DNA from: Promethearchaeota archaeon
Lineage (GTDB): Archaea; Asgardarchaeota; Lokiarchaeia; Sigyniarchaeales; SOKP01
Length of the DNA: 14,239 nucleotides
Direction of reading: 5' to 3'
NCBI GenBank assembly: GCA_004524535.1
Contig: SDNY01000096.1
Location: 1 to 14,239 of the forward strand
Of this stretch, positions 3,493 to 14,239 are shown piece after piece (the stretch's first letter is position 1; every line of letters starts with the position of its first letter). Both the position numbers and the translations under genes were made by a program. The notes under the pieces were generated by a model. It searched no databases, was not told the DNA's origin, and was given only the letters and a program-made list of their open reading frames with translations.

Positions 3493-3530
3493 AGAAAATT
3501 GTCGGTGGCTTCTTTTTTTTTTTAAAAGTC
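3493..3530 (+). promoter_or_regulatory. Putative iRadA promoter (AGAAAATTnTCG, T-run, TTTAAA box)
   Basis: TTTAAA at 3521-3526, 25 nt before the ATG at 3546. Similar layout to 8011-8045 upstream of the PolB2 operon. Confidence 0.45.
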
Positions 3531-3545
3531 ACATTATTTCATGTA

Positions 3546-4298
3546 ATGCCGTTTGATTCAGGATTCAGGGTATACAAAAAAAATAACAGAATTCCCGTCG
3601 TTTCAAGTGGAGATTCCACGCTAGATGAGTTGTTGTCTGGTGGTTTTCAAAAAGATTTAGTCTATTTGCTCTACGGTGACAAAAAAAAGACGACAGATAT
3701 TTTGTTGACAACCGCAGTTATCACGCAAAAGGCTTTTGCCAATGGAGGACTTGGAGAGGGGATTAAAATTGCTTTCATTGATGGAAATAATCGCTTCAAT
3801 CCATATAATGTGAGTAAATTTGCAGTTTCTCAACATTTATCGCCTCGAAAAGTCCTAGAAAACATCGTTATTGCCCGAGCATTTACTTGGGATCAGATGA
3901 TCGAACTTCTGGAAAATAGACTTTCTACGCTTGAACATGTCAAGGTTGTGTTAGTTTCAGGAATCACGACCTTGTTTCAAAGCTATGAAAAACAAACTTT
4001 CGAAGACTTGTTAAAAGCAATAGGGGGAATCAAAGACATTCTTTCAAAGACCAAGCCTTTAATTGTTTTAACTGCCCCTTTGAACGAATTTTCTCTCTTT
4101 AGGCCTAAAGGTGGAAATATTATTTCTCATTTCGGGAGCGTGCTAATATTGATAAACGACAACGAGCGTTATGTAGAATACAAGCTCGTTCAACATCCAT
4201 TTAAACAGGAAAAGCAGCTTTTAAAGTGGAAACCCCGAACCCCTAAAAAGAAATTGTCAAATCCCCTTAAAAATACGACATTAGATTGCTGGTTTTAA
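3546..4298 (+). CDS. Inactivated RadA/RecA-fold paralog (iRadA, the type associated with PolB2)
   Basis: SSGDSTLDELLSGG (RadA TGxxxLDxLLGGG), IAFIDGNNRFNPY, IARAFTWDQM. Walker A is degraded (YGDKKKTT) and Walker B lacks Asp (VVLVSG). C-terminus NTTLDCWF is PIP-like. Confidence 0.88.
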   Translation: MPFDSGFRVYKKNNRIPVVSSGDSTLDELLSGGFQKDLVYLLYGDKKKTTDILLTTAVITQKAFANGGLGEGIKIAFIDGNNRFNPYNVSKFAVSQHLSPRKVLENIVIARAFTWDQMIELLENRLSTLEHVKVVLVSGITTLFQSYEKQTFEDLLKAIGGIKDILSKTKPLIVLTAPLNEFSLFRPKGGNIISHFGSVLILINDNERYVEYKLVQHPFKQEKQLLKWKPRTPKKKLSNPLKNTTLDCWF

Positions 4299-4321
4299 GG
4301 TGTGTCTACATTTCTATTTCC

Positions 4322-4605
4322 TTAAATTTTTAGTAAACGGCTACCATGAATTATAGTTAGAATTTCAACAAATTGAATCTTATTTCTATAAATAATTCGA
4401 TAATTATGAAAAATAATTTCTCTTATGTTTGGATTATCAAGTTCTGGTACTATTCGCCCTATCTTTGGGAAGTCTTTTAGTTTTTGGGCGCTTTCATAAA
4501 GTTTTTTCATAAAAAGATTTGCGTAATTTTTAGAATCACGTGCAATATAATTATAAATTTCGTGTAGTCTTCTAATGCACGTTCATTCCATTCTATTCTA
4601 ACCAT
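4322..4605 (-). pseudogene. RelE/ParE-family toxin, frameshifted
   Basis: ATG 4605-4603 reads MVRIEWNERALED. One base is missing at ~4566/4567, and the other frame continues LHEIYNYIARDSKNYANLFMKKLYES...FPKIGRIVPE...YRIIY...ILTIIHGSRLL. The span is 284 nt (95 codons minus 1) and overlaps the antitoxin stop. Confidence 0.85.
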
Positions 4606-4784
4606 TTTTCGATGATTTCTTTAGCTTTTTCATTTGATACTTTTTTACTATCATCAGCATCCTTAATCCCCCGAAATATTTTTTCTCTTACATATAAGTG
4701 ATACATTATATCTTCTACAGTTACATCATTTGGAAGCGATTTAATAAATGAAATAATTTGGTCTTTTAAATTTTCAGAACTCAT
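4593..4784 (-). CDS. Antitoxin of the RelE/ParE-type pair
   Basis: 63 aa with LPNDVTVEDIMYHLYVREKIFRGIKD...EKW, typical of small antitoxins that precede ParE toxins. Overlaps the toxin start by 13 nt. TTTAAATA box at 4818-4811. Confidence 0.85.
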   Translation of the reverse strand: MSSENLKDQIISFIKSLPNDVTVEDIMYHLYVREKIFRGIKDADDSKKVSNEKAKEIIEKWLE

Positions 4785-4826
4785 GATTATTTTTATAATG
4801 GAAAATGAAGTATTTAAAGATAGTTG

Positions 4827-4870
4827 TTATTTCTTCTTTTTATACATGTTTGGATCTTTTTTTTTTAAGT
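4827..4870 (-). repeat. Short orphan copy of the DUF3795-like gene 3' end
   Basis: Minus strand encodes KKDPNMYKKKK-TAA versus KKDPRMYKKKTE-TAA in the intact gene. + strand ttctttttatacatgtttggatctttttttt matches ttctttttatacatgcgtggatctttttttt at ~6766-6796. Confidence 0.85.
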
Positions 4871-5024
4871 ATTATTGATAATCGACAACGAGCGATATGT
4901 AGAATATACACTCGTTCAAAATCCATTTAAACAGGAAAAGCAGCTTTTAAAGTGGAAACCTCGAGATCCAAAGAGAAAAACATCGAATCCTACCACTAAT
5001 AATACAATTGATTGTTGGTTTTGA
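4870..5024 (+). repeat. Long orphan copy of the iRadA 3' end
   Basis: Ungapped match to 4144-4298 (offset 726). Hand count: 120/150 nt and 39/49 aa identical over 4875-5024. Perfect 40-bp block 4921-4960 = 4195-4234. Ends NNTIDCWF-TGA, has no in-frame ATG, and is preceded by an in-frame TAA at 4866. Confidence 0.95.
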
Positions 5025-5167
5025 CTGGAAATCTTTGATTAAACTAATATCGTTATAGAGCTTATGTTGGTAATTTATTTTAGGAATATTTAAATACAAA
5101 TTGTGGGTTTAAAAAATTAAGATTATTTTTATTTAAAAATCAAAAATAGTTGAGGTGTAAAATAAAA

Positions 5168-5266
5168 ATGGCAAAAAAGAAAGCTCCCGCAAAGAAAAAA
5201 CCAGCAAAAAAAGCTCCCGCAAAGAAAAAACCAGCAAAAAAAGCTCCCGCTAAAAAGAAAAAATAA
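5168..5266 (+). CDS. 32-aa Lys/Ala/Pro-only microprotein resembling the histone H1 C-terminal tail
   Basis: MAKKKAPAKKKPAKKAPAKKKPAKKAPAKKKK (17 K, 9 A, 5 P). SD GAGGTG at 5152-5157, 10 nt before the ATG. TTTAAA boxes upstream and a T-rich tract downstream. Absent from the ORF track. Confidence 0.8.
   Translation: MAKKKAPAKKKPAKKAPAKKKPAKKAPAKKKK
5181..5250 (+). repeat. 30-bp perfect tandem repeat (2.3 copies) inside the microprotein
   Basis: aagctcccgcaaagaaaaaaccagcaaaaa at 5181-5210 and 5211-5240, with a partial copy at 5241-5250. Confidence 0.95.
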
Positions 5267-5308
5267 CGAAAACAAAATATTTCCTTTTAGCTATTAGAAA
5301 TTTATCTT

Positions 5309-5476
5309 TTAAAGATTTATTCCTTTTTTTTTATATTGATTTGGATTCTTTTTCTCAAGAGTGAGAGGATCTCCACCATATTGGATTTTTTTACCTTGAT
5401 AATAAAGAGTAGAATTTTCCTCACAGATTTTATTCCATTCTTCCACCCCCAGCTTTTGTATCATAATCGAATTGTA
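5309..5476 (-). repeat. Long orphan copy of the DUF3795-like gene 3' end
   Basis: YNSIMIQKLGVEEWNKICEENSTLYYQGKKIQYGGDPLTLEKKNPNQYKKK versus intact YNLIMIQKHGLEKWNEICEEKSKLYYEGKKIKYGGDPLTLEKKDPRMYKKK (6917-6765). 39/51 aa identical by hand, no gaps. Confidence 0.95.
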
Positions 5477-5499
5477 CGACCTTGGATTGTTGGTTCTAG
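5475..5499 (+). repeat. Short orphan copy of the iRadA 3' end
   Basis: t acg acc ttg gat tgt tgg ttc tag = TTLDCWF*, versus t acg aca tta gat tgc tgg ttt taa at 4274-4298. 20/25 nt identical; all 5 differences are synonymous third positions. Confidence 0.85.
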
Positions 5500-5621
5500 A
5501 TTAAACAATCTTAATGTATTAAGTCAATTATCCAATTATCCAGTTTTGAAGATGATCTATTAAATTTTTATATTTCTTTTTTGTCATAATAATCTTATAA
5601 CTTAAAGTTTAATTTTTAATG

Positions 5622-6734
5622 TTAATCATTCCTATTTTTTTTTCTTTTTTTCTTTCCTGCTAAATAAAGGATGCAACATCCAGGGCAAATAGACATTAAT
5701 TTATTTTTTCGCATATATGTCCGGAATTTTTGATAATTTTCGCCATTCCATATCTCTTCAATAGTATTCTCGTAAAGGTTTCCTAATATAAGGTCGTAAA
5801 ATGCATGGCAAGGAGCTATATCTCCAGCGGCGGTAATATCGACACTAACCCAAGGCACTAAACATCCACCATAAGTGTCTGACATATCATTCCATCTTGC
5901 TTCGATATAGGCTTTAAGATTTTCTGGAGAGAACGTAGGAGGTTCGAGTATAACAATTTTTCCGATATTTTTTAAGTGTGTGACTACTTTATTAACTTGC
6001 TGGGCCAACTTATTGGTATCCACATCATTAAAATCTCGAGGGGATCTAATAAATCCCTTCCAATAACTATCACTTGTGATCCCAAAGTTAGATCTAATCA
6101 TTTCTGCGTATTTACTACCCATCTCTTCTGTTAGGAAGTTTTGCATCTGGATTGTTATATTGTTAATGGCTGATAGGTTGAGATCTTCAAGAAAAAATTG
6201 CTCAATAGAATGATAATTTTTAGGAGTTACTGTATAAAGGATACCGATATATGGTTTTTTCTTCTTAGCTATTAATTTTTCTTCATGAAGGGTTTCGATA
6301 CCATTAAAAGCTTTATCATGGCTTCCTTTACCACGCATTTCATCTGTTATTTCACGAGGCCCATCAATTGATACCCTCACAGAATCGAAATCCGTTCGAA
6401 CCAGCATTTTAGCGTGTTCTGCTAATAATGTACCGTTAGTAGGAGTGTCTATAATGGATCCTGCTTCTTTAATTGTACAAATAACTTCTTCTATGAAGGG
6501 GTACATGAGAGGTTCTCCTCCAAAAAGACTGTAAAATGGCTTAGATGGAGTCAAATCGTGAATAATCTGCTTCACTAACTCAAGTTCTAATGATATTGGT
6601 TTTCTTCCAAGTTTAGAGCTAGAATAAGCCCCAGTTTCTCCCCAAAAATAACACATTTTACATCTGAGATTGCAATTCTCCGTTAAATGGAGTATAACAC
6701 TTCTAGGTAAGCCACGCTTTCCGCTAATTGACAC
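5622..6734 (-). CDS. Radical SAM protein with C-terminal SPASM/Twitch domain
   Basis: CNLRCKMC, GGEPL, TNGTLL, VSIDG; C-terminal CLVPW...GDIAPC...LGNL...IWNG...CPGCC. GTG start 21 nt after the DUF3795-like stop. Confidence 0.93.
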   Translation of the reverse strand: MSISGKRGLPRSVILHLTENCNLRCKMCYFWGETGAYSSSKLGRKPISLELELVKQIIHDLTPSKPFYSLFGGEPLMYPFIEEVICTIKEAGSIIDTPTNGTLLAEHAKMLVRTDFDSVRVSIDGPREITDEMRGKGSHDKAFNGIETLHEEKLIAKKKKPYIGILYTVTPKNYHSIEQFFLEDLNLSAINNITIQMQNFLTEEMGSKYAEMIRSNFGITSDSYWKGFIRSPRDFNDVDTNKLAQQVNKVVTHLKNIGKIVILEPPTFSPENLKAYIEARWNDMSDTYGGCLVPWVSVDITAAGDIAPCHAFYDLILGNLYENTIEEIWNGENYQKFRTYMRKNKLMSICPGCCILYLAGKKKRKKNRND

Positions 6735-6755
6735 TATGCTTATCCCTTGCCGGAT

Positions 6756-7166
6756 TTATTCTGTTTTCTTTTTATACATGCGTGGATCTTTTTTTTCAAG
6801 TGTTAAAGGGTCGCCGCCGTACTTAATTTTCTTTCCTTCATAATATAATTTTGACTTTTCTTCGCAAATTTCATTCCATTTTTCTAATCCATGCTTCTGA
6901 ATCATAATTAAATTGTATACTTTTGAATTATGAGGAGCAAAAATCTCAAAATTTACAATAGGTTGAAGCATTTCACACGGAAAATCTGCACATTCATAAC
7001 AAAAATTGTATCCCTTACTTGTAACACATTCATAAGTCTTGCATACTGGAAAATCTTTTACTTGGCCTTTTTGTTCTAGGCATCCTTTACAATTATAGAA
7101 CTTTACTCCCGGACATCTTTTACAATAGATTCCACAAGGAGCGTGCCATTTTAGTTCATCACTCAT
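6756..7166 (-). CDS. DUF3795-like Cys-rich (putative Zn/Fe-S) protein
   Basis: APCGIYCKRC, CKGC, CKTYEC, FCYECADFPC and N...IQKHGLEKW, the typical DUF3795 Cys pattern. Confidence 0.85.
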   Translation of the reverse strand: MSDELKWHAPCGIYCKRCPGVKFYNCKGCLEQKGQVKDFPVCKTYECVTSKGYNFCYECADFPCEMLQPIVNFEIFAPHNSKVYNLIMIQKHGLEKWNEICEEKSKLYYEGKKIKYGGDPLTLEKKDPRMYKKKTE

Positions 7167-7387
7167 AATATCATCTTATTAAATATTGTATAGTAAATAT
7201 TTTTTTTACTTATTATAAATAAGTTATCTAAAACGGAATATAAATCATCATTTCAGTAAAGAAAAAAGGAGGATCAATCCAATTTTTTAGTTTTCATTAC
7301 CATAACACGAACAATTAAAATATTATTTAAGTATTTATTATATCATATCTACTAAAAAGTATAAGAATTCTAGAGATGGTTTAATTT

Positions 7388-7918
7388 ATGTCAGATCATA
7401 TAATCAAAATAGTTATCGGTGGAGATGGTGGTGTTGGGAAAACTACGCTATTAAATAGGTTTGTTCATGATGAATTTGATTTGAAAACTCAAATGACTAA
7501 GGGTCTTGAATTCTTTCATAAGGAAATTGAAATTGAAGATAAGAATTATGAACTCATTATATGGGATTTAGGAGGCCAGGCACAATTCAAAAGGCTTTTC
7601 CCTAAGTCTAAATGGATCGAAGGCACTTTAGGTGCCCTAGTTTTATTTGATTTAACGCGCTTTAACAGTTTAAATAATCTATATTTTTGGTTGGACTTGT
7701 TAGATCAACAAGGGGACATCCCTATATTGATTATTGGATCTAAGCTTGATATGATCGACGGGGACTCAAAAGATATTGACGATGTAGTATTGAGTATCTT
7801 GGAAGTAAATGACAATTATTTTGATTATATAAAGACCTCTTCTTTAACAGGAGAAAACATAAACGAATCTTTTGAGCTGTTGGTAAGGAAAATAATGAGC
7901 AACGAGAATGTTTCCTAA
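7388..7918 (+). CDS. Rab/Ras-like small GTPase (Asgard type)
   Basis: IKIVIGGDGGVGKTT, TKG, WDLGGQ, variant G4 GSKLD, variant G5 TSSL. No C-terminal Cys. Confidence 0.92.
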   Translation: MSDHIIKIVIGGDGGVGKTTLLNRFVHDEFDLKTQMTKGLEFFHKEIEIEDKNYELIIWDLGGQAQFKRLFPKSKWIEGTLGALVLFDLTRFNSLNNLYFWLDLLDQQGDIPILIIGSKLDMIDGDSKDIDDVVLSILEVNDNYFDYIKTSSLTGENINESFELLVRKIMSNENVS

Positions 7919-7999
7919 TCAATAATTCTCTTTATTAAACTAAAGTGAGCTCTAAATTAAGCTCTATAATTTAAATCCTCTCTTAATTCTATTAAAATA

Positions 8000-8048
8000 G
8001 TCATGAAATCAGAAAATTTTCGCCGTATTTTTTTTTAAATTTCATGAC
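8000..8048. promoter_or_regulatory. 10-bp perfect inverted repeat bracketing the putative promoter of the PolB2 operon
   Basis: GTCATGAAAT (8000-8009) and ATTTCATGAC (8039-8048) enclose AGAAAATTTTCG and a T-run/TTTAAA box. Confidence 0.5.
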
Positions 8049-8072
8049 AAATTACTTCTTTTGGTAATCATT

Positions 8073-8342
8073 ATGGGAAGAACCGTGCCTTCTTTTAGGC
8101 CTGCGTTAGAACATGAAATAGAAAGCTGGAAGGATTTTAAAAGAGCGCTTCGCCCCGAAGATCAGGAACTTTTTCACAAATTAATGAATTTTGCTCGAAT
8201 TCACGCCGATGCGGGGAGTTTGAGCGCCCGTCCAATGCTTTCAGAAATATTATTCATGTCTTTCGCAGTCGAACAAGAAAAAAAAATCGAGTTTTTAGAG
8301 AAAAAAATTAAAGAATTGGAAGAAAAATTAAAGGATAAATAA
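8073..8342 (+). CDS. Small helical PolB2-associated protein (arCOG07300-like)
   Basis: Characteristic N-terminus MGRTVPSFRxALExEIxxWKxFxRALR and a C-terminal coiled coil. Ends 1 nt before polB2. ATG 8073 preferred to TTG 8061. Confidence 0.85.
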   Translation: MGRTVPSFRPALEHEIESWKDFKRALRPEDQELFHKLMNFARIHADAGSLSARPMLSEILFMSFAVEQEKKIEFLEKKIKELEEKLKDK

Positions 8343-8343
8343 T

Positions 8344-10746
8344 TTGGTTTCTCAAGAGCAATTTGACGGCTGGCTTTTGGATGTTTCAACTTTTAGTGAA
8401 GGGGTAATTCTCTGGGTTAAAAAAGAAGGGAAAAATGTGAAGATATTTCAAGATTTTTCCCCTGAATTTTTTGCCGTGCCCAATAAAAGCGCTGGCAACG
8501 ATTTAAAAAGATTAAAAAACATTCTAAAGTCTCATCCAAAAGTAAAATGTGTTCGCATCTGTGAAAAATATGTGAAGTTAGAGGATCATGGGAAAACGAA
8601 AATTTTTGGTGTTTCCGTGTCAAAACCTTCAGTATTTAAAAAGGTGATTAGCGAAATCGACGAAGTAGGGCTTTTTACTCTCTATAATACGGATCTACCG
8701 ATCTCGCAGATGTATTTCTACATAAACGATCTATTCCCGATGTCTCGCTGTAAATTTACAGTGAAAATTGAGAGGGACAAAAGGAAAAAGGAAAAAGTTA
8801 TGCGTTTGCTCTCCTTAGAGTTGAAGGACGATAATGAAGAACTATTTTATGAATTGCCTCCGTTAAGGGCAGTGTGGTTAGATATTAAAGTCCAGAAGCG
8901 CGGAATTAGAGCATACTACAACGACCCTCTTGCTTACGCTATAGTAAGTATTGTGGAAAATGATGAAAACAATGTTCCAAGAGCAGATGGCTACAAAAAG
9001 CGCAAAATTCTGATCGATTTGGCTGACGAGGCAGAAAATCTGATAATGATAAGTAGAGTAATTGAGAAAATCGATCCCGATATAATTCTCACGCAGAACG
9101 GAGATGAGTTCATGTTTCCATATTTGGTTGCACGTGCGTCAAAAAATCGTGTATCAATGGATCTTTACTTATCTCGAGATAAGACTCCCCTTAAAAACTG
9201 TCTTATTGAACTTTCAGGGGGTTCTGACCATTATATGTCCTATGGAATTATTCGACGTCGTTCAAAAACTCAAGTTTATTTTACGGGAAGATTTCATTTG
9301 GACACGACCACTTACGCCAGCCTTCACTTCACTGAAGGAAACATTCCTGGCGTTATTGAAGTAGCACGCATATCCCGGGTCCCTCTCCAACGATTAGCAC
9401 GAATTACAATCGGCGGAGCATTGCAGTCGATTCAATTTTACAATGCCTATAAGCTCGATCATTTAATTCCTCCGTTTAAGAAAAGTCCTGAGGGATTTCG
9501 GTCTGGAATGGATTTGATATATGGAGACCGAGGAGGACACATCTTCCAGCCTTTAATTGGTGTGTTTGATCAAGTGGTTGAGCTTGATTTTTCTTCAATG
9601 TATCCTTCTTTAATGTCGGAATATAATGTCTCTTCAGAAACAATAAACTGCAAGTGCTGTAAGGATGATGGAACTGGGATTAAAGTACCTGGATTGGATT
9701 TTCACATTTGTACCAAAAGACGAGGTATCATTGCAGAGTCTATCAGCTTACCCTTGGGAAAAAGGTTGCAGTACAAGGACTATAATAAAACTCACGATGA
9801 AATTCGATACAAATTCACTGACATTGCCCTGAAATGGGTGCTTGTTGTAAGCTTTGGGTATTTAGGGTTTAAAAACGCCCGCTTTGGGAAGATAGAGGCT
9901 CATCAGACGGTCTGTGCTTTTGCTCGTGAATTTCTCATGCGTGCTGCAGAGATTGCCGAGAGATATGGGTGCCAAATTATTCACGGCATTGTAGACTCTC
10001 TATGGCTGAAAGACACAAAGGGAAGGACTCCTGAAGAATTCGACAATGTGACCAAGAAAATCGTCGAAGATATTTCAAAAGAGACAAGGATTCCTATGAA
10101 TTGGGAAGGAAGGTATAATGTAATAGTATTCCTTCCATCCCGGGCAGAACCTGATATACCTGCACTCAGTCATTACTGGGGCATCAAAAGCGACGGAGAA
10201 CTTAAGGTAAGAGGCATTGAAGTCAGGCGACGCGACATCCCAAAAATCGTAAAAGACGCCCAATATACACTTATTGATGTGTTCAAAGGTGCGACTTCTG
10301 TTGAAGAATTCATGGATAGAATTCCCGACGCAAGAAAAAAGCTCTTTGAATATGTGGATCGAATACTCTCAGGCAAGATATCGAGAGAAGAACTGACAAT
10401 AAAGCAAAGGATCTCTCGTAAACCTTCGGCTTACAAAGTAAATTCATATCAAGCTGTCGCAGCAAGGCAACTGGAACGATCTGGGGTTGTAACCTCGGCA
10501 GGAAAAAATGTAAGATACATAATTCTCAACGCAGAAGCCGATCCTAACTTTCCAGAAAAAAAGGTAATCCTTTCAGACTTGTACGACCCAAGGAAACATC
10601 AATACGACAAAAAAAAATACATCGAATTGTTAAAAAGAGCGTTTGAAAACATCTTTCCTTTTGAATTCCCTGAGCTTGAAATCTTATTGACAAAAGATTA
10701 TAAAAATAGTTCTGTTCAAAAAGATTTATCATGTTTTGTGGATTAA
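8344..10746 (+). CDS. polB2: Family B DNA polymerase, archaeal PolB2 group
   Basis: Motif A ELDFSSMYPS; motif B LKWVLVVSFGYLG; motif C altered to IHGIVDSLW (YGDTDS in replicative PolB); KVRGIEVRRRD; Cys insert CKCC...HIC; degraded exonuclease motifs (LDIKV, NGDEFMFPYL). TTG start. Confidence 0.93.
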   Translation: MVSQEQFDGWLLDVSTFSEGVILWVKKEGKNVKIFQDFSPEFFAVPNKSAGNDLKRLKNILKSHPKVKCVRICEKYVKLEDHGKTKIFGVSVSKPSVFKKVISEIDEVGLFTLYNTDLPISQMYFYINDLFPMSRCKFTVKIERDKRKKEKVMRLLSLELKDDNEELFYELPPLRAVWLDIKVQKRGIRAYYNDPLAYAIVSIVENDENNVPRADGYKKRKILIDLADEAENLIMISRVIEKIDPDIILTQNGDEFMFPYLVARASKNRVSMDLYLSRDKTPLKNCLIELSGGSDHYMSYGIIRRRSKTQVYFTGRFHLDTTTYASLHFTEGNIPGVIEVARISRVPLQRLARITIGGALQSIQFYNAYKLDHLIPPFKKSPEGFRSGMDLIYGDRGGHIFQPLIGVFDQVVELDFSSMYPSLMSEYNVSSETINCKCCKDDGTGIKVPGLDFHICTKRRGIIAESISLPLGKRLQYKDYNKTHDEIRYKFTDIALKWVLVVSFGYLGFKNARFGKIEAHQTVCAFAREFLMRAAEIAERYGCQIIHGIVDSLWLKDTKGRTPEEFDNVTKKIVEDISKETRIPMNWEGRYNVIVFLPSRAEPDIPALSHYWGIKSDGELKVRGIEVRRRDIPKIVKDAQYTLIDVFKGATSVEEFMDRIPDARKKLFEYVDRILSGKISREELTIKQRISRKPSAYKVNSYQAVAARQLERSGVVTSAGKNVRYIILNAEADPNFPEKKVILSDLYDPRKHQYDKKKYIELLKRAFENIFPFEFPELEILLTKDYKNSSVQKDLSCFVD

Positions 10747-10771
10747 GTGAGTTCGCGAATAATTATTAAAA

Positions 10772-10792
10772 TTGAGTGTCAAAGTTACTCAA
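10772..10792. terminator. Small hairpin between the convergent polB2 and UbiA-like genes
   Basis: TTGAGT-9 nt-ACTCAA within a 50-nt convergent gap. Confidence 0.25.
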
Positions 10793-10796
10793 CCCA

Positions 10797-11765
10797 TTAT
10801 ACTGAGAGTAAGATTGCCATTAACATTGTTAACATACCGAAGGAAACTAATAAGCCTGCTTTCTTTGGAATTTTATTATTTGAGATGCTACGTCGGGTTA
10901 ATAAACAAGCCAAGCCAACTAATGGAATATATATGATGATCATAATAAATAAAAACGCCCTAGGATAAGCAATACCCTTAAATAGGACAGTTAAGAGTAG
11001 AGTTACATATATACCCCCTGCTAGAGCAATTGCAATAATTTGAGAAAACATGGACTTTTTTAATAAATCCTTACTCTGAGCGTTAGTTAATCTTATATTG
11101 ACCGATCTTTTCTTTAAATTTTTTTTTATTTTGTCCTTTGTTGGTGCTTTATCCTTTTTTGAAAAAATCCTTTTACGCAGGTTCTTGATCCTATGTTTCT
11201 TTTCTTTTACTATATCTTCTAAATCTCTTGCTTCTTTTATATATTCTCTTGATAATTGTAGAAAAAAGAAAGTAAAAAAGAAAAATAAGACATATATTGG
11301 AAAGATTACAAGATTTAGACTAGCTCCATAGATTAAACCAAGAGAAAATGATAGACACATTAAAATTTTTATAACAATCTCACTTTTATCTTTTTTTGAT
11401 GCAAAGAGACTGAGTCCTATCCAGAGACCTCCAATTACAATAAGTGGAATTAATATAAGAATATCAAGATTAAAGACTGCCATATTTATTAAAGTCACGG
11501 TAAATCCAATGGCATACATAATGATACTCATAATAAATGCATGTAATGATATTTTTTCATCAGAATTTTGAAGATATTTAACCATCAGTAAGCCCGAAAG
11601 CGCTAGAAATAAATATGCTGTTATCCCAAGTAATATATTTGTTTCATATCTACCAATTCCTACGTTAAATCTAGTAAGATATAGTCCGAAAACTACGATA
11701 ATCATCCCTTTAATACAAGTTTCCCAGAAATCTCTTAATGCATTTCCATTCTTTTTCTTATTCAA
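10797..11765 (-). CDS. UbiA prenyltransferase-like (DGGGP synthase-like) multi-pass membrane protein, degenerate
   Basis: About 8-9 hydrophobic segments. LSREYIKEARDLED resembles the second UbiA Asp-rich motif (REIIKDIED). The first NDxxD motif is not seen, and a long Lys-rich loop follows the second motif. Confidence 0.6.
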   Translation of the reverse strand: MNKKKNGNALRDFWETCIKGMIIVVFGLYLTRFNVGIGRYETNILLGITAYLFLALSGLLMVKYLQNSDEKISLHAFIMSIIMYAIGFTVTLINMAVFNLDILILIPLIVIGGLWIGLSLFASKKDKSEIVIKILMCLSFSLGLIYGASLNLVIFPIYVLFFFFTFFFLQLSREYIKEARDLEDIVKEKKHRIKNLRKRIFSKKDKAPTKDKIKKNLKKRSVNIRLTNAQSKDLLKKSMFSQIIAIALAGGIYVTLLLTVLFKGIAYPRAFLFIMIIIYIPLVGLACLLTRRSISNNKIPKKAGLLVSFGMLTMLMAILLSV

Positions 11766-11779
11766 TTTTTTATCATCTC

Positions 11780-13846
11780 TTATGGTGCCTTATAATATCT
11801 CGAACTATTACTAAAATTAAGTTCTAAGTAGTGACCTTCATGTTCTATGATTGTTCTAGTTGTATAAAAATCTTGCTGGCAATATTGATTATCGAATCGT
11901 TTATAATCTCCTAAATCAATTTCAATACCATCTACATACATAGGTTCATCCCAACTCACAGTCACATCGCCTTGAGAAGGGGAAGTATAACTAATATCAT
12001 ATCCTAAGGATAATGGAGTAACACTCATGGTGATATCCAATATAGCGTCCTGAAAATTCTCAAAAGATCCATAAGTATCCTTATCACCTAATTCTACAAC
12101 ATATAAATTCTTAGAACCTCGGGTTTGAAGCTCGTAATCTGAAACCCATGTTGAAGGTTCATAAGTGTAAAGTGCCACATAACCGTCATCTTTAGCACCC
12201 ATTGACCATTTATCGGTCAAATAAACATCTTCAAAAGCCCATTGAGGAAAATAAGCATGGTTATAAAATTTAAAGCCTGTAAAGAGATTCATTAAGAATA
12301 TCATTAACTCTGCTTCAAATGGCATAACCTCTCTATCGTATTGGATGACACCAATATTCTTATATAAGGTCGCTCGAGGTTTCCACCCGCCCATAAAAAA
12401 TTGGTCTAAACCATGAGTATATCCACCTGGAGAATTTGTAAAAACATAAGCATCATCATCCAAAGTCGCCTGCCAAATCATTTCTTGTGCTCCGTTCATT
12501 CCTTTCATGTGATCTTGTACGCCTGAAAGTTGATAATTTGATGTCCGATATGTATAGATATTTGCAGCCTCAAGCATAATCCCTTGGGTTATCCCTTTGA
12601 TTGTTTGGGAATAATCGCTAAGAGAAAGTCCTTTTATGAAGGCCATGAATTTTATAAAATCCATGAGGATTTGAGGGCCAAATAAAGTCATAGGATCTCT
12701 ATTATTTTCTTCTACATGATCAAATGTTGGTTCAATTGTTTGAGGTGCTAAGTGAGCTTGTAATCCTAACCAATACATTAAATCATCTTCATAGTCTACT
12801 CCATATTTATCTCCTTCACTTAAATATAGATTATGTCTCTCCTTGCTTTCACAATAAAGGGTTGCATTTTGCGCAATTAGTTCAAATATGGGGGGAGGAG
12901 CATAATGATCACTTGTCGCCAAAGCAACTGCTGCCATATTGTTACCATTAGAAGCATAATGCCTTCCTATTCCCAATATAATCCATACCGCCTCTGAGAC
13001 ACTATCGTGTGTAGGTGTGCCTACATGAGAATCGTCATAAGTACGCCCCATTGAAGTTGCATACCTGTTTTTATAATAATTAATAGCAAAACCAAAAGCC
13101 ATCAGATCTAGCACCATGGCTGCTTTTCGCGCAATTTCCTCATCTAAAGCAAAGTCTACCAGATTTACTAAAGCAGCAATATCTTCAACATAATAGGTAT
13201 TTGAGTGCCATTCAGAAAATCCAAATTTACCGCGCCAATTTAACCATTGTTTAACGTAAGGAGTTGCATGTATGACTTTCTCATCTCCAGTCATATCTGA
13301 ATTTTTGAAAATATCACCGGGAAATAATTGTCCAACAAGTAGTTCCGATGTATGATAGAGGATTTGATGATTCTCTGTTGTAAAGATTGCTGAATCACTG
13401 CTAGGTTCATCATGCCAATATTTTGCTTTCCCTAAAGCATCACATACTTTATCCCTTGTAGCTGTAGACAAAATTGATTTATTTATATCTAAATAGAGCA
13501 TCCTAATTAAGGAATTCATTCTAAAATCCATACAATCTTTATATTTTTTAATTGGTCCAAGTGCATCGATAATCGAACTATCATTTACTGCCATATTTAA
13601 ATAAATTCTTGAAGATTGTGCATAAAAATCCTCATAATTTACACTGTCATTTAAATATATATCCTGTCGAGTTCTATATCCAACCGTGGCATTAAAATAA
13701 TCAAACATATCAAAATTTCGAATAAAAGTAGTACGCATCGTGTATTCCCATTGTACATTAATCTCTTCAGCAGATATAAGGGAAATTTGTTGAACAAGTA
13801 TCATAAGAATGATAGGAATCGCTAAAGATCGGGCTTTTTTATACAT
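11780..13846 (-). CDS. Large secreted protein, possibly heparinase II/III or polysaccharide-lyase-like fold
   Basis: N-terminal signal peptide (MYKKARSLAIPIILMILVQQISLISA). Motifs TENHQILY, GFSEWHSNTYY and SMGRTY in a helical N-half; beta-rich C-half. The family assignment is tentative. Confidence 0.6.
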   Translation of the reverse strand: MYKKARSLAIPIILMILVQQISLISAEEINVQWEYTMRTTFIRNFDMFDYFNATVGYRTRQDIYLNDSVNYEDFYAQSSRIYLNMAVNDSSIIDALGPIKKYKDCMDFRMNSLIRMLYLDINKSILSTATRDKVCDALGKAKYWHDEPSSDSAIFTTENHQILYHTSELLVGQLFPGDIFKNSDMTGDEKVIHATPYVKQWLNWRGKFGFSEWHSNTYYVEDIAALVNLVDFALDEEIARKAAMVLDLMAFGFAINYYKNRYATSMGRTYDDSHVGTPTHDSVSEAVWIILGIGRHYASNGNNMAAVALATSDHYAPPPIFELIAQNATLYCESKERHNLYLSEGDKYGVDYEDDLMYWLGLQAHLAPQTIEPTFDHVEENNRDPMTLFGPQILMDFIKFMAFIKGLSLSDYSQTIKGITQGIMLEAANIYTYRTSNYQLSGVQDHMKGMNGAQEMIWQATLDDDAYVFTNSPGGYTHGLDQFFMGGWKPRATLYKNIGVIQYDREVMPFEAELMIFLMNLFTGFKFYNHAYFPQWAFEDVYLTDKWSMGAKDDGYVALYTYEPSTWVSDYELQTRGSKNLYVVELGDKDTYGSFENFQDAILDITMSVTPLSLGYDISYTSPSQGDVTVSWDEPMYVDGIEIDLGDYKRFDNQYCQQDFYTTRTIIEHEGHYLELNFSNSSRYYKAP

Positions 13847-14239
13847 CTCAATAATAAATATTTAAGGGTACTTAAAAAGAATTTTTAAAAACCTCTCTGA
13901 TTTTTGTCGGTACACCCCCGCCTTCTATTCTCTTTTCTTTTCTCTTAAAAGCTTGTACATAATTGTCTTATTCCGTTCTTTCGCAGCGGATTATAATTTA
14001 AAGACCCTAAATATTAATATTCGAATTTTTACTAACTTTATGAATTAGAAAATTTACACGGTGTCTTAATTTATTATTTATAAAATGAGTATTAAAAATA
14101 AGATGTCAAAAGCATTAACAAAAGTATCTTCATATTTCGATTGGGAATTAAAATTTAAAAAAACCTCAAATTTTAAGCATAATACTAATTCTAATTATAA
14201 TTCAAATTTGAATAAAGATAATAAAAATTCCCTTGGAAT

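Follow-up and report, generated by a model that had tools for sequence, protein, structure and literature searches.

Tandem integrative islands at the 3' ends of tRNA or other genes, such as the tycheposons of Prochlorococcus, rely on integrases and on defined attachment (att) cores. Displaced gene ends are also known from C-terminal displacement in bacteria, and a paper on Rhs by Jackson et al. 2009 is cited by the study of type VI secretion system (T6SS) arrays that treats this process. In the sections of that study that deal with displacement, rhs genes, cdiA-CT/cdiI orphans and the T6SS effector-immunity arrays of Vibrio cholerae are given as examples, homology-facilitated illegitimate recombination is proposed as the mechanism, and the authors themselves liken the arrays to integrons without an integrase (PMC5361080). 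For Asgard archaea, the corresponding sections on aloposons and on the integrative elements of Atabeyarchaeia describe elements of 1.3-44 kb that carry recombinases or giant genes and reside at tRNA genes or short att motifs (PMC8813620, PMC11529989). Here we describe an array of displaced 3' gene ends in a stretch of 14,239 nucleotides (nt) from a Promethearchaeota archaeon (GenBank contig SDNY01000096.1), hereafter the window. The window is the entire 14-kb contig C28 of a metagenome-assembled genome (MAG, G000) of 198 contigs with 4.4% contamination. We consider the array to be, probably, a scar array left by additive, tail-anchored recombination with DNA of related Promethearchaeia (Lokiarchaeia-type) lineages. 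A preliminary description of the locus had known of no such architecture in Asgard archaea. Our literature searches, with supplements outside their scope, likewise found no description of displaced gene ends in Asgard archaea, but the bacterial C-terminal displacement arrays are a close concept.

The array lies between a RadA-like gene and a convergent DUF3795 gene. It reads in the order RadA-like gene in full (+), ParE/RelE-antitoxin pair (-), DUF3795 end (-), RadA-like end (+), peptide open reading frame (ORF) (+), DUF3795 end (-), RadA-like end (+), radical SAM/SPASM gene (-) and DUF3795 gene in full (-). The cargo strands are mixed, with the toxin-antitoxin pair on the minus, the peptide on the plus and the radical SAM gene on the minus strand. 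Below, the toxin-antitoxin unit is called unit 1 and the peptide unit is called unit 2. Genome G008, the closest relative, and the metagenome contig L097 serve as references for the following features.

3546-4298, plus strand: full RadA/Rad51-like paralogue (iRadA in the preliminary description), 250 amino acids (aa); its last ~155 nt are tail 1
4195-4234, plus strand (copy 1), and 4921-4960 (copy 2): perfect 40-nt repeat, a candidate crossover or gene-conversion tract
4322-4606, minus strand: ParE/RelE-type toxin gene, frameshifted; the remaining ORF is 4322-4510, 62 aa
4593-4784, minus strand: ORF in antitoxin position, 63 aa, intact, upstream of the toxin gene
4827-4868, minus strand: short DUF3795 orphan 3' end, 13 codons and stop; junction J1 is at 4868/4869
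4869-5024, plus strand: RadA-like orphan tail 2, 51 codons and stop; chimeric
5168-5266, plus strand: Lys/Ala/Pro-rich peptide ORF, 32 aa, made of 30-nt repeats
5309-5475, minus strand: long DUF3795 orphan 3' end, ~55 codons and stop; junction J2 is at 5475/5476
5476-5499, plus strand: RadA-like orphan tail 3, 7 codons and stop, encoding TTLDCWF; equals the original gene end of a G008-type locus
5510-5620, no strand: stretch of ~111 nt, a gap in the blastn tiling against G008 and L097
5622-6734, minus strand: radical SAM/SPASM protein, 370 aa, the resident older cargo (Pfam Radical_SAM and SPASM)
6756-7166, minus strand: full DUF3795 gene, 136 aa, convergent with the RadA-like gene (Pfam DUF3795)

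Comparison of the window with itself recovered the five orphan and full pieces of the preliminary description at their claimed places, within 1-3 nt. The end of the RadA-like gene (4144-4296) matches 4870-5022 with 80.4% identity over 153 nt (E 4e-35), and this pair comprises 51 codons and a stop in open frame with 76% aa identity. Within the DUF3795 gene, 6753-6917 is matched by 5314-5476 (72% over 165 nt, E 7e-19; 71% over 56 aa) and 6766-6805 by 4834-4874 (88% over 41 nt, E 6e-7). The minus-strand translation of 4827-4868 is LKKKDPNMYKKKK, followed by the stop. Tail 3 is identical to the resident gene end at 20/24 nt, but to the gene end of G008 at 24/24 nt. The RadA-like protein matches Pfam Rad51 (E 7e-17), and its NCBIfam RadA/RadB matches remain under their cut-offs. 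Orthologues are present in 60/60 related genomes searched, with alignments that span residues 1-250.

The array is a real chromosomal structure and was independently re-assembled. The assembly was checked with Logan contigs of four sequencing runs, not raw reads. Run X1, with 95% of the sampled words, may be the source sample. Contigs built independently from it cover positions 3500-7200 with zero differences, at depths of 51.7, 53.2, 55.5 and 54.1. J1 is bridged by a 746-nt X1 contig that covers 4205-4950 without differences. J2 is bridged by an X1 contig of 9 kb from 5221 onward; a contig of 283 nt from run X2, which belongs to another study, also bridges it, with three differences. The 40-nt repeat, already noticed in the preliminary description, is real and forms a single unitig of its own at depth 110, about twice the 52-55 of its neighbours. 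Since the depth is equal across unitigs, the array is read as one molecule. One could suspect that the assembly merged co-existing strains with different cargo, or a small circle, into a single contig: the window makes up an entire contig of a fragmented and slightly contaminated MAG, the 40-nt repeat leaves the graph ambiguous for unit 1, and related alleles co-occur in sediments. However, unitig depths are uniform at 52-56 with the repeat doubled, both junctions lie inside long contigs that have no k-mers in common with alternative paths, J2 recurs in a second study, and L097 independently shows the same kind of stack. Such an artefact is therefore very improbable.

The divergence of the tails points to an origin outside the resident lineage. 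Synonymous (pS) and nonsynonymous (pN) divergence were 0.475 and 0.136 between tails 1 and 2, and 0.96 and 0.14-0.16 between the DUF3795 gene and its long orphan. All orphan stubs of the window keep their frame and stop, and none has indels. Because pS greatly exceeds pN and frames and stops are intact, the orphans are foreign functional alleles that diverged under purifying selection in other lineages and were inserted recently. Judged by this pattern, the orphan tails are foreign alleles and not decaying local duplicates. The long DUF3795 stub is 80-83% identical to DUF3795 genes of another genus, versus 72% to the resident gene. A local tandem duplication that ran from inside one tail to inside the other would produce the observed junction topology, and divergence and turnover of cargo in the same lineage would then have had to follow. 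We find this hardly credible, since synonymous divergence is near saturation with little protein change, unit 2 is 96-100% identical to the locus of another lineage and 72-80% to the resident tails, and the three cargos are wholly unrelated.

Tail 2 is itself recombinant. Between ~4950 and ~5445, a stretch that includes the peptide, the window and L097 show 96-100% identity; left of ~4928 the identity is below 70%. The left part of tail 2 resembles tail 1 and G008, the right part is of the L097 type, and the breakpoint lies at the end of the 40-nt tract common to tails 1 and 2. The identity profiles against G008 and L097 place a mosaic breakpoint within the homologous anchor. Tail 1 is imported as well, because the identity of the RadA-like gene to G008 falls toward the gene end, from 97-100% up to ~4110 to ~90% and finally 82%.

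Simpler states of the locus are found in relatives. G008 shares 96% aa identity in the RadA-like protein and 95.7% nt identity over window positions 5628-14239. Here the RadA-like gene is followed, after ~40 nt, by the radical SAM and DUF3795 genes, and the slot of this base state holds the radical SAM gene only. The same gene lies at the same place in L097, L103 and L107 as well as in G008 (93% aa). The window is collinear with G008 up to its own RadA-like gene end and again from 5475. Because it is collinear on both sides, the window carries, relative to G008, ~1.2 kb inserted 24 nt before the RadA-like stop. L097 represents an intermediate state: its RadA-like gene is followed by the peptide, a DUF3795 stub, a RadA-like stub and the radical SAM gene, without the toxin-antitoxin unit. 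In metagenome contig L099 the RadA-like gene is followed by an intact toxin-antitoxin pair, and homology to the window stops ~10 nt into the short DUF3795 stub. A contig of run X3 joins 4264 to 5475 via nine letters and so has a G008-type gene end without insert. A second X3 contig contains the end of tail 2, the peptide with one 33-nt repeat less and the start of the long stub, and in a third a DUF3795 tail of the long-stub type continues into a full DUF3795 gene. From the X3 and L099 loci it follows that unstacked donor-type alleles exist in nature. According to the preliminary description, related lineages contributed alleles of this slot that accumulated in tandem, with none replaced. This idea is supported by the synonymous-rich divergence of the tails, the match to L097, the base and intermediate states, and a slot that is empty or holds other cargo in most relatives.

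Homologues of the toxin-antitoxin pair of unit 1 at 73-83% nt identity occur in many genomes. Only L099 has the pair beside a RadA-like gene, and because it is only 79% identical, the true donor of the unit has not been found. Among 16 other toxin-antitoxin loci fetched, none adjoins a RadA-like or DUF3795 gene; since these copies adjoin unrelated genes, the pair is a module moving on its own. The antitoxin-position ORF is paired with the toxin in all 16, at 62-88% aa identity. A 75% copy of the pair lies in the same genome (G000:C5:3278-3688), and copies at 66-83% are present in many related genomes (L056-L071). The toxin matches Pfam ParE_toxin (E 1.6e-10), and its L099 homologue matches RelE_StbE. 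Compared with three homologues (L099, G000:C5, G112), which encode ~94 aa, the toxin gene has a 1-nt deletion. The proposed toxin-antitoxin pair stands as to the toxin family and the intact partner ORF; however, the toxin is frameshifted, so that the intact toxin of a type II pair with its small upstream partner is missing, and family searches (Pfam, NCBIfam) gave no match for the 63-aa partner.

The peptide of unit 2 had been called H1-like, a label we withdraw: a Pfam search found no family for the 32-aa ORF, whose limits were corrected to 5168-5266. Three 30-nt repeats make up positions 5165-5260. The form in X3 is 33 nt shorter, in frame, and the L097 counterpart, read by hand only, has an ATG-to-TAA frame one codon shorter. 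At the DNA level, relatives of the peptide ORF at 74-83% sit at other loci of several genomes. Positions 5510-5620, a stretch of ~111 nt that separates the last RadA-like stub from the stop of the radical SAM gene, have no counterpart in G008 or L097, and a genome search gave no other copy.

The interval was compared across relatives, as had been suggested. Among 20 downstream regions from related genomes, DUF3795 was convergent in 15, present only as a 24-aa stub in one and absent from four. Metagenome contigs (80) were added, and 90 loci with a complete gene end and at least 300 nt downstream were kept. A full convergent DUF3795 gene was found in 55/90; the gap is at most 76 nt long in 24 of these and measures 245-8687 nt in the other 31. 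When 52 more non-duplicate genome contigs were surveyed, DUF3795 was present in 33, and 12 of these have gaps of at most 73 nt. Over both surveys the gaps that are not short measure 239-8687 nt and hold varied cargo, for instance an 8-kb oxidoreductase-type operon, a 368-aa ORF, zinc-ribbon and Lys-rich ORFs, or distant radical SAM genes. Because adjacency is shared and gaps and cargo vary, the two genes are old neighbours and the gap between them is a variable slot. Orphan stubs occur in 9/142 other loci, a figure that does not count independent lineages, as metagenome and genome contigs may overlap in origin. Stub matches in L042 and L053 (25-33% identity) and one in L301 (22%) were spurious and were dropped.

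Some relatives depart from this arrangement. In L049 (G023) and L051 (G011) the RadA-like gene converges straight on a family-B polymerase gene, the p93-PolB block is inverted and DUF3795 is absent. In L052 (G019), DUF3795 appears at 2075-2451 as two overlapping matches, which suggests a frameshift. Relatives L236, L237, L248 and others bear discordant phylum labels (Hodarchaeota, Thorarchaeota, Odinarchaeota, 'Nanopelagicaceae bacterium'). Since close relatives of one gene family are labelled so discordantly, the public names of such MAGs are unreliable.

The cut points of the stubs differ between loci. RadA-like stubs begin 21, 24, 63, ~104 or 156 nt before the stop; the cut at 21 nt is seen in L148 and that at ~104 nt in L137, whose stub is decayed (83% identity, in-frame stop). 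DUF3795 stubs range from 13 to 168 nt and occur alone in L143, L301, L041 and L133. In L097 the DUF3795 stub ends ...CCACCCC and the RadA-like stub, identical to G008 at 62/63 nt, begins CCCCGAAC..., with a common run of four or five C. The window joins the same two partners with 36 more nt of the DUF3795 stub and 39 fewer nt of the RadA-like stub. With respect to microhomology at the second joint, L097 is joined at CCCC, and J1 and J2 of the window permit only 2-4 ambiguous bases. The joints of the window and of L097 were either made independently in each lineage or trimmed twice from a longer common ancestor.

Trimming is the core of an alternative history, heteroduplication followed by erosion. 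A long foreign or sister-chromosome segment would have brought whole copies of both genes in tandem, and deletions would have trimmed the head-to-head internal copies to 3' stubs. Consistent with this, the same two units are joined at different points (168/24 nt in the window, ~132/63 nt in L097), a joint at CCCC microhomology is typical of deletions, and the L137 stub has decayed. However, a full or half-length internal copy of either gene was found in none of the 142 surveyed loci, the window stubs are intact in frame without indels, and the breakpoint inside tail 2 is directly explained by a crossover in the tail. We regard the erosion history as unlikely.

Additive, tail-anchored recombination, the reading that we prefer, would proceed as follows; its order of events and its enzymology we infer from the states described above. 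The conserved 3' coding ends of the two convergent genes would be the only homology that diverged lineages retain around the variable slot. An incoming piece, composed of a gene tail, foreign cargo and in some cases part of the other gene's tail, would recombine homologously inside the RadA-like gene. The far end of the piece would be attached by an illegitimate joint a short way before the resident stop codon, where homology is slight or absent. With the gene completed by the incoming tail, the old tail and old cargo would not be replaced but would come to lie further downstream. A G008-type locus that underwent this twice, gaining the peptide unit first and the toxin-antitoxin unit second, would yield the window; after a single event it would yield L097. 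The illegitimate joint might form first, in a small circle that is then integrated in Campbell style, or during integration, by homology-facilitated illegitimate recombination. Both routes had been suggested in the preliminary description and both fit, but the informative sites in tails 1 and 2 (compared with G008, L095, L096, L097 and L099) cannot separate them. A dedicated recombinase would not be needed, and the array would be no machine but a by-product of recombination and a hot spot of gene gain. That the window looks two-sided is a matter of where the individual donor fragments ended. The two-sided architecture is real here, but it does not look designed: other stacks at the slot and in the genome are one-sided.

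Orphan 3' ends also occur elsewhere in this genome. The scan used a crude set of 2989 ORFs of at least 100 aa, and the last 50 residues of each were sought outside long ORFs and within 12 kb. It flagged 41/2989 ORFs with an orphan 3' tail downstream on the same strand, versus 6 upstream and 1 on the opposite strand. Among control pieces, N-terminal ones were found 15 times upstream and 9 times downstream, and middle ones 13 times downstream and 4 times upstream. One to three cargo ORFs lie between the gene and its orphan tail, and stacks are present at C74:6068-9869, C80:371-10223, C103:16000-20409 and C167:371-9770. Among 30 cargo ORFs from 19 intervals there were several PIN, UPF0175 and MNT/HepT toxin-antitoxin genes; leucine-rich repeat (LRR) and WD40 proteins, glycosyltransferases, B12-radical SAM enzymes, DprA and a methyltransferase were also found, and 10 were without family. 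The pooled other orphans show a pS of 0.48 and a pN of 0.125. A sensitive search for stubs of the convergent neighbour in the 41 intervals found them only in the window and at C137:6442-10347 (L075); other matches were of low identity and were dropped as chance. At C137 the ends of both convergent genes are duplicated together over 323 nt (96% identity), and an LRR gene and a 134-aa ORF lie between the two copies. In G005 and G002 the same gene pair is adjacent, without cargo. We noticed that C137 mirrors the window layout, with the cargo between the duplicates and not inside them.

The preference of orphan tails for the downstream side (41 versus 6) could also be explained by an integrase encoded elsewhere that uses att sites in gene ends and inserts small satellite cassettes, as circles, in tandem, in the manner of integrons or of tandem islands at tRNA genes. 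The repeated use of the slot fits this explanation, as do the 323-nt duplicate at C137, which flanks cargo like attL/attR where G005 and G002 have none, and the perfect 40-nt repeat that flanks the toxin-antitoxin unit. In contrast, integrase or transposase families, including PF00589, were found in none of the 17 window ORFs, and the 30 cargo ORFs of the 19 other intervals contained no integrase or transposase family either. In the whole MAG a single PF00589 gene, on contig C126, exceeds the cut-off, besides one weak match. The junctions differ each time, as the cut points of the RadA-like stubs show. The repeats are 72-80% identical and not conserved cores; an att core identical and at a fixed position in every occurrence was not seen, 40-nt identity being limited to unit 1. 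The inverted-repeat list of the window contains nothing at the unit borders 4868/4869 and 5475/5476. Integrase-dependent cassettes are thus quite unlikely here. The preliminary description was right about the missing integrase, transposase and terminal inverted repeats; its expectation of integron-like behaviour did not hold, as integrase and attC-like structure are lacking and the cargo orientations are mixed.

A bolder extension of recombination at gene tails appears doubtful to us, yet deserves to be stated. Conserved 3' ends of ordinary genes might serve as portable landing pads for a cassette traffic without recombinase in Promethearchaeia. Recombination between tail repeats would release units, the 726-bp toxin-antitoxin unit for example, which would travel between lineages as small circles or fragments and re-insert via host RadA-type recombination at any conserved gene end. 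This would be a main route of gene gain in the present genome. Its footprint would be the 41 genes with displaced tails, whose cargo includes LRR, WD40, glycosyltransferase and defence-like genes. The excess of orphan tails is not uniform among relatives. In a 400-kb sample of G043, 10/289 ORFs were flagged, of which four (starts 66881, 250286, 341331 and 381288) were judged credible. The other six lie in a repeat-protein region (125-175 kb) that breaks crude ORF calls. This region, G043:C1:125000-175000, is a long tract of short protein-level repeats, either a giant repeat gene or an array, and inflates orphan counts.

Several observations weigh against additive recombination at the tails, or limit how far it reaches. 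Erosion of a longer duplication would account just as well for the differing junctions of the window and L097. Microhomology at J1 and J2 is at most 2-4 nt, with an ambiguous position. The left parts of tails 1 and 2 are only ~87-89% identical to G008, compared with 97-100% for the gene body, and because a simple two-event history does not predict this, an extra conversion or exchange must be assumed. J1 was seen in no other sample or locus. As the check used contigs only, the choice of path through the 40-nt repeat, between an integrated unit 1 and a 726-bp circle of the same depth, relies on the even depth and the original assembly; with a repeat of 40 nt, the excised form adds no new 31-mers. 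For the genome as a whole, the pooled pS and pN of the other orphans are biased because these orphans were detected by protein similarity. Two congener samples of 400 kb are poor in orphan tails (0/339 ORFs in G001, 2 weak cases among 316 in G008), and the genome-wide excess may be lineage-specific.

No known organisms are closer relatives of eukaryotes than the Asgard archaea, whose gene uptake is, to our knowledge, poorly known. With its base and intermediate states, the locus would illustrate step by step how host recombination alone can bring in genes, with cargo added and nothing lost. If the genome-wide excess holds in complete genomes, an orphan 3' end downstream of its own gene would be a simple signature with which to count such events and identify donors across archaea. 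The interest of the locus would grow if the genome-wide signal turned out to reflect a general way in which these archaea gain genes.

In comparison with known systems, the array shares with integrons the stacking of cassettes at one site, with the newest by the anchor and the older ones displaced. Unlike integrons, the window has no intI, attI, attC or common promoter logic, its orientations are mixed and its junctions are not fixed. Islands of the tycheposon type resemble it in that duplicated target 3' ends flank the units, remnant arrays build up and the target gene stays intact. They differ in that no integrase was detected in the window and its repeats are diverged alleles, not att copies. 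The Asgard elements described so far are likewise integrated DNA that carries cargo, but displaced gene ends are not mentioned in those sections of the two reports that describe them (PMC8813620, PMC11529989). The C-terminal displacement arrays, as presented in the relevant sections of the T6SS study (PMC5361080), come closest. In both, a full gene is followed on the same strand by its own orphan 3' fragments, each with a downstream gene or cargo. In both, a new module from another strain anchors in a conserved part of the gene and shifts the old one downstream without an integrase, and mosaic arrays are later spread by ordinary homologous recombination. The orphans of the window also come from other lineages, as seen from the excess of pS over pN, the 96-100% identity of unit 2 to L097 and the long DUF3795 orphan, which is nearest to another genus. 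In contrast to those arrays, the tails in the window are conserved orthologous ends of ordinary genes (71-76% identical) instead of alternative toxin domains with immunity genes, and the cargo (toxin-antitoxin, peptide, radical SAM) bears no relation to the host gene. As the donor piece extends at its far end into the convergent neighbour, stubs of two genes occur in alternation. The array is found in an Asgard archaeon, in whose genome many other, unrelated genes show the same pattern. By analogy, the array works like the C-terminal displacement arrays and would be their archaeal counterpart, although it is no polymorphic-toxin locus.

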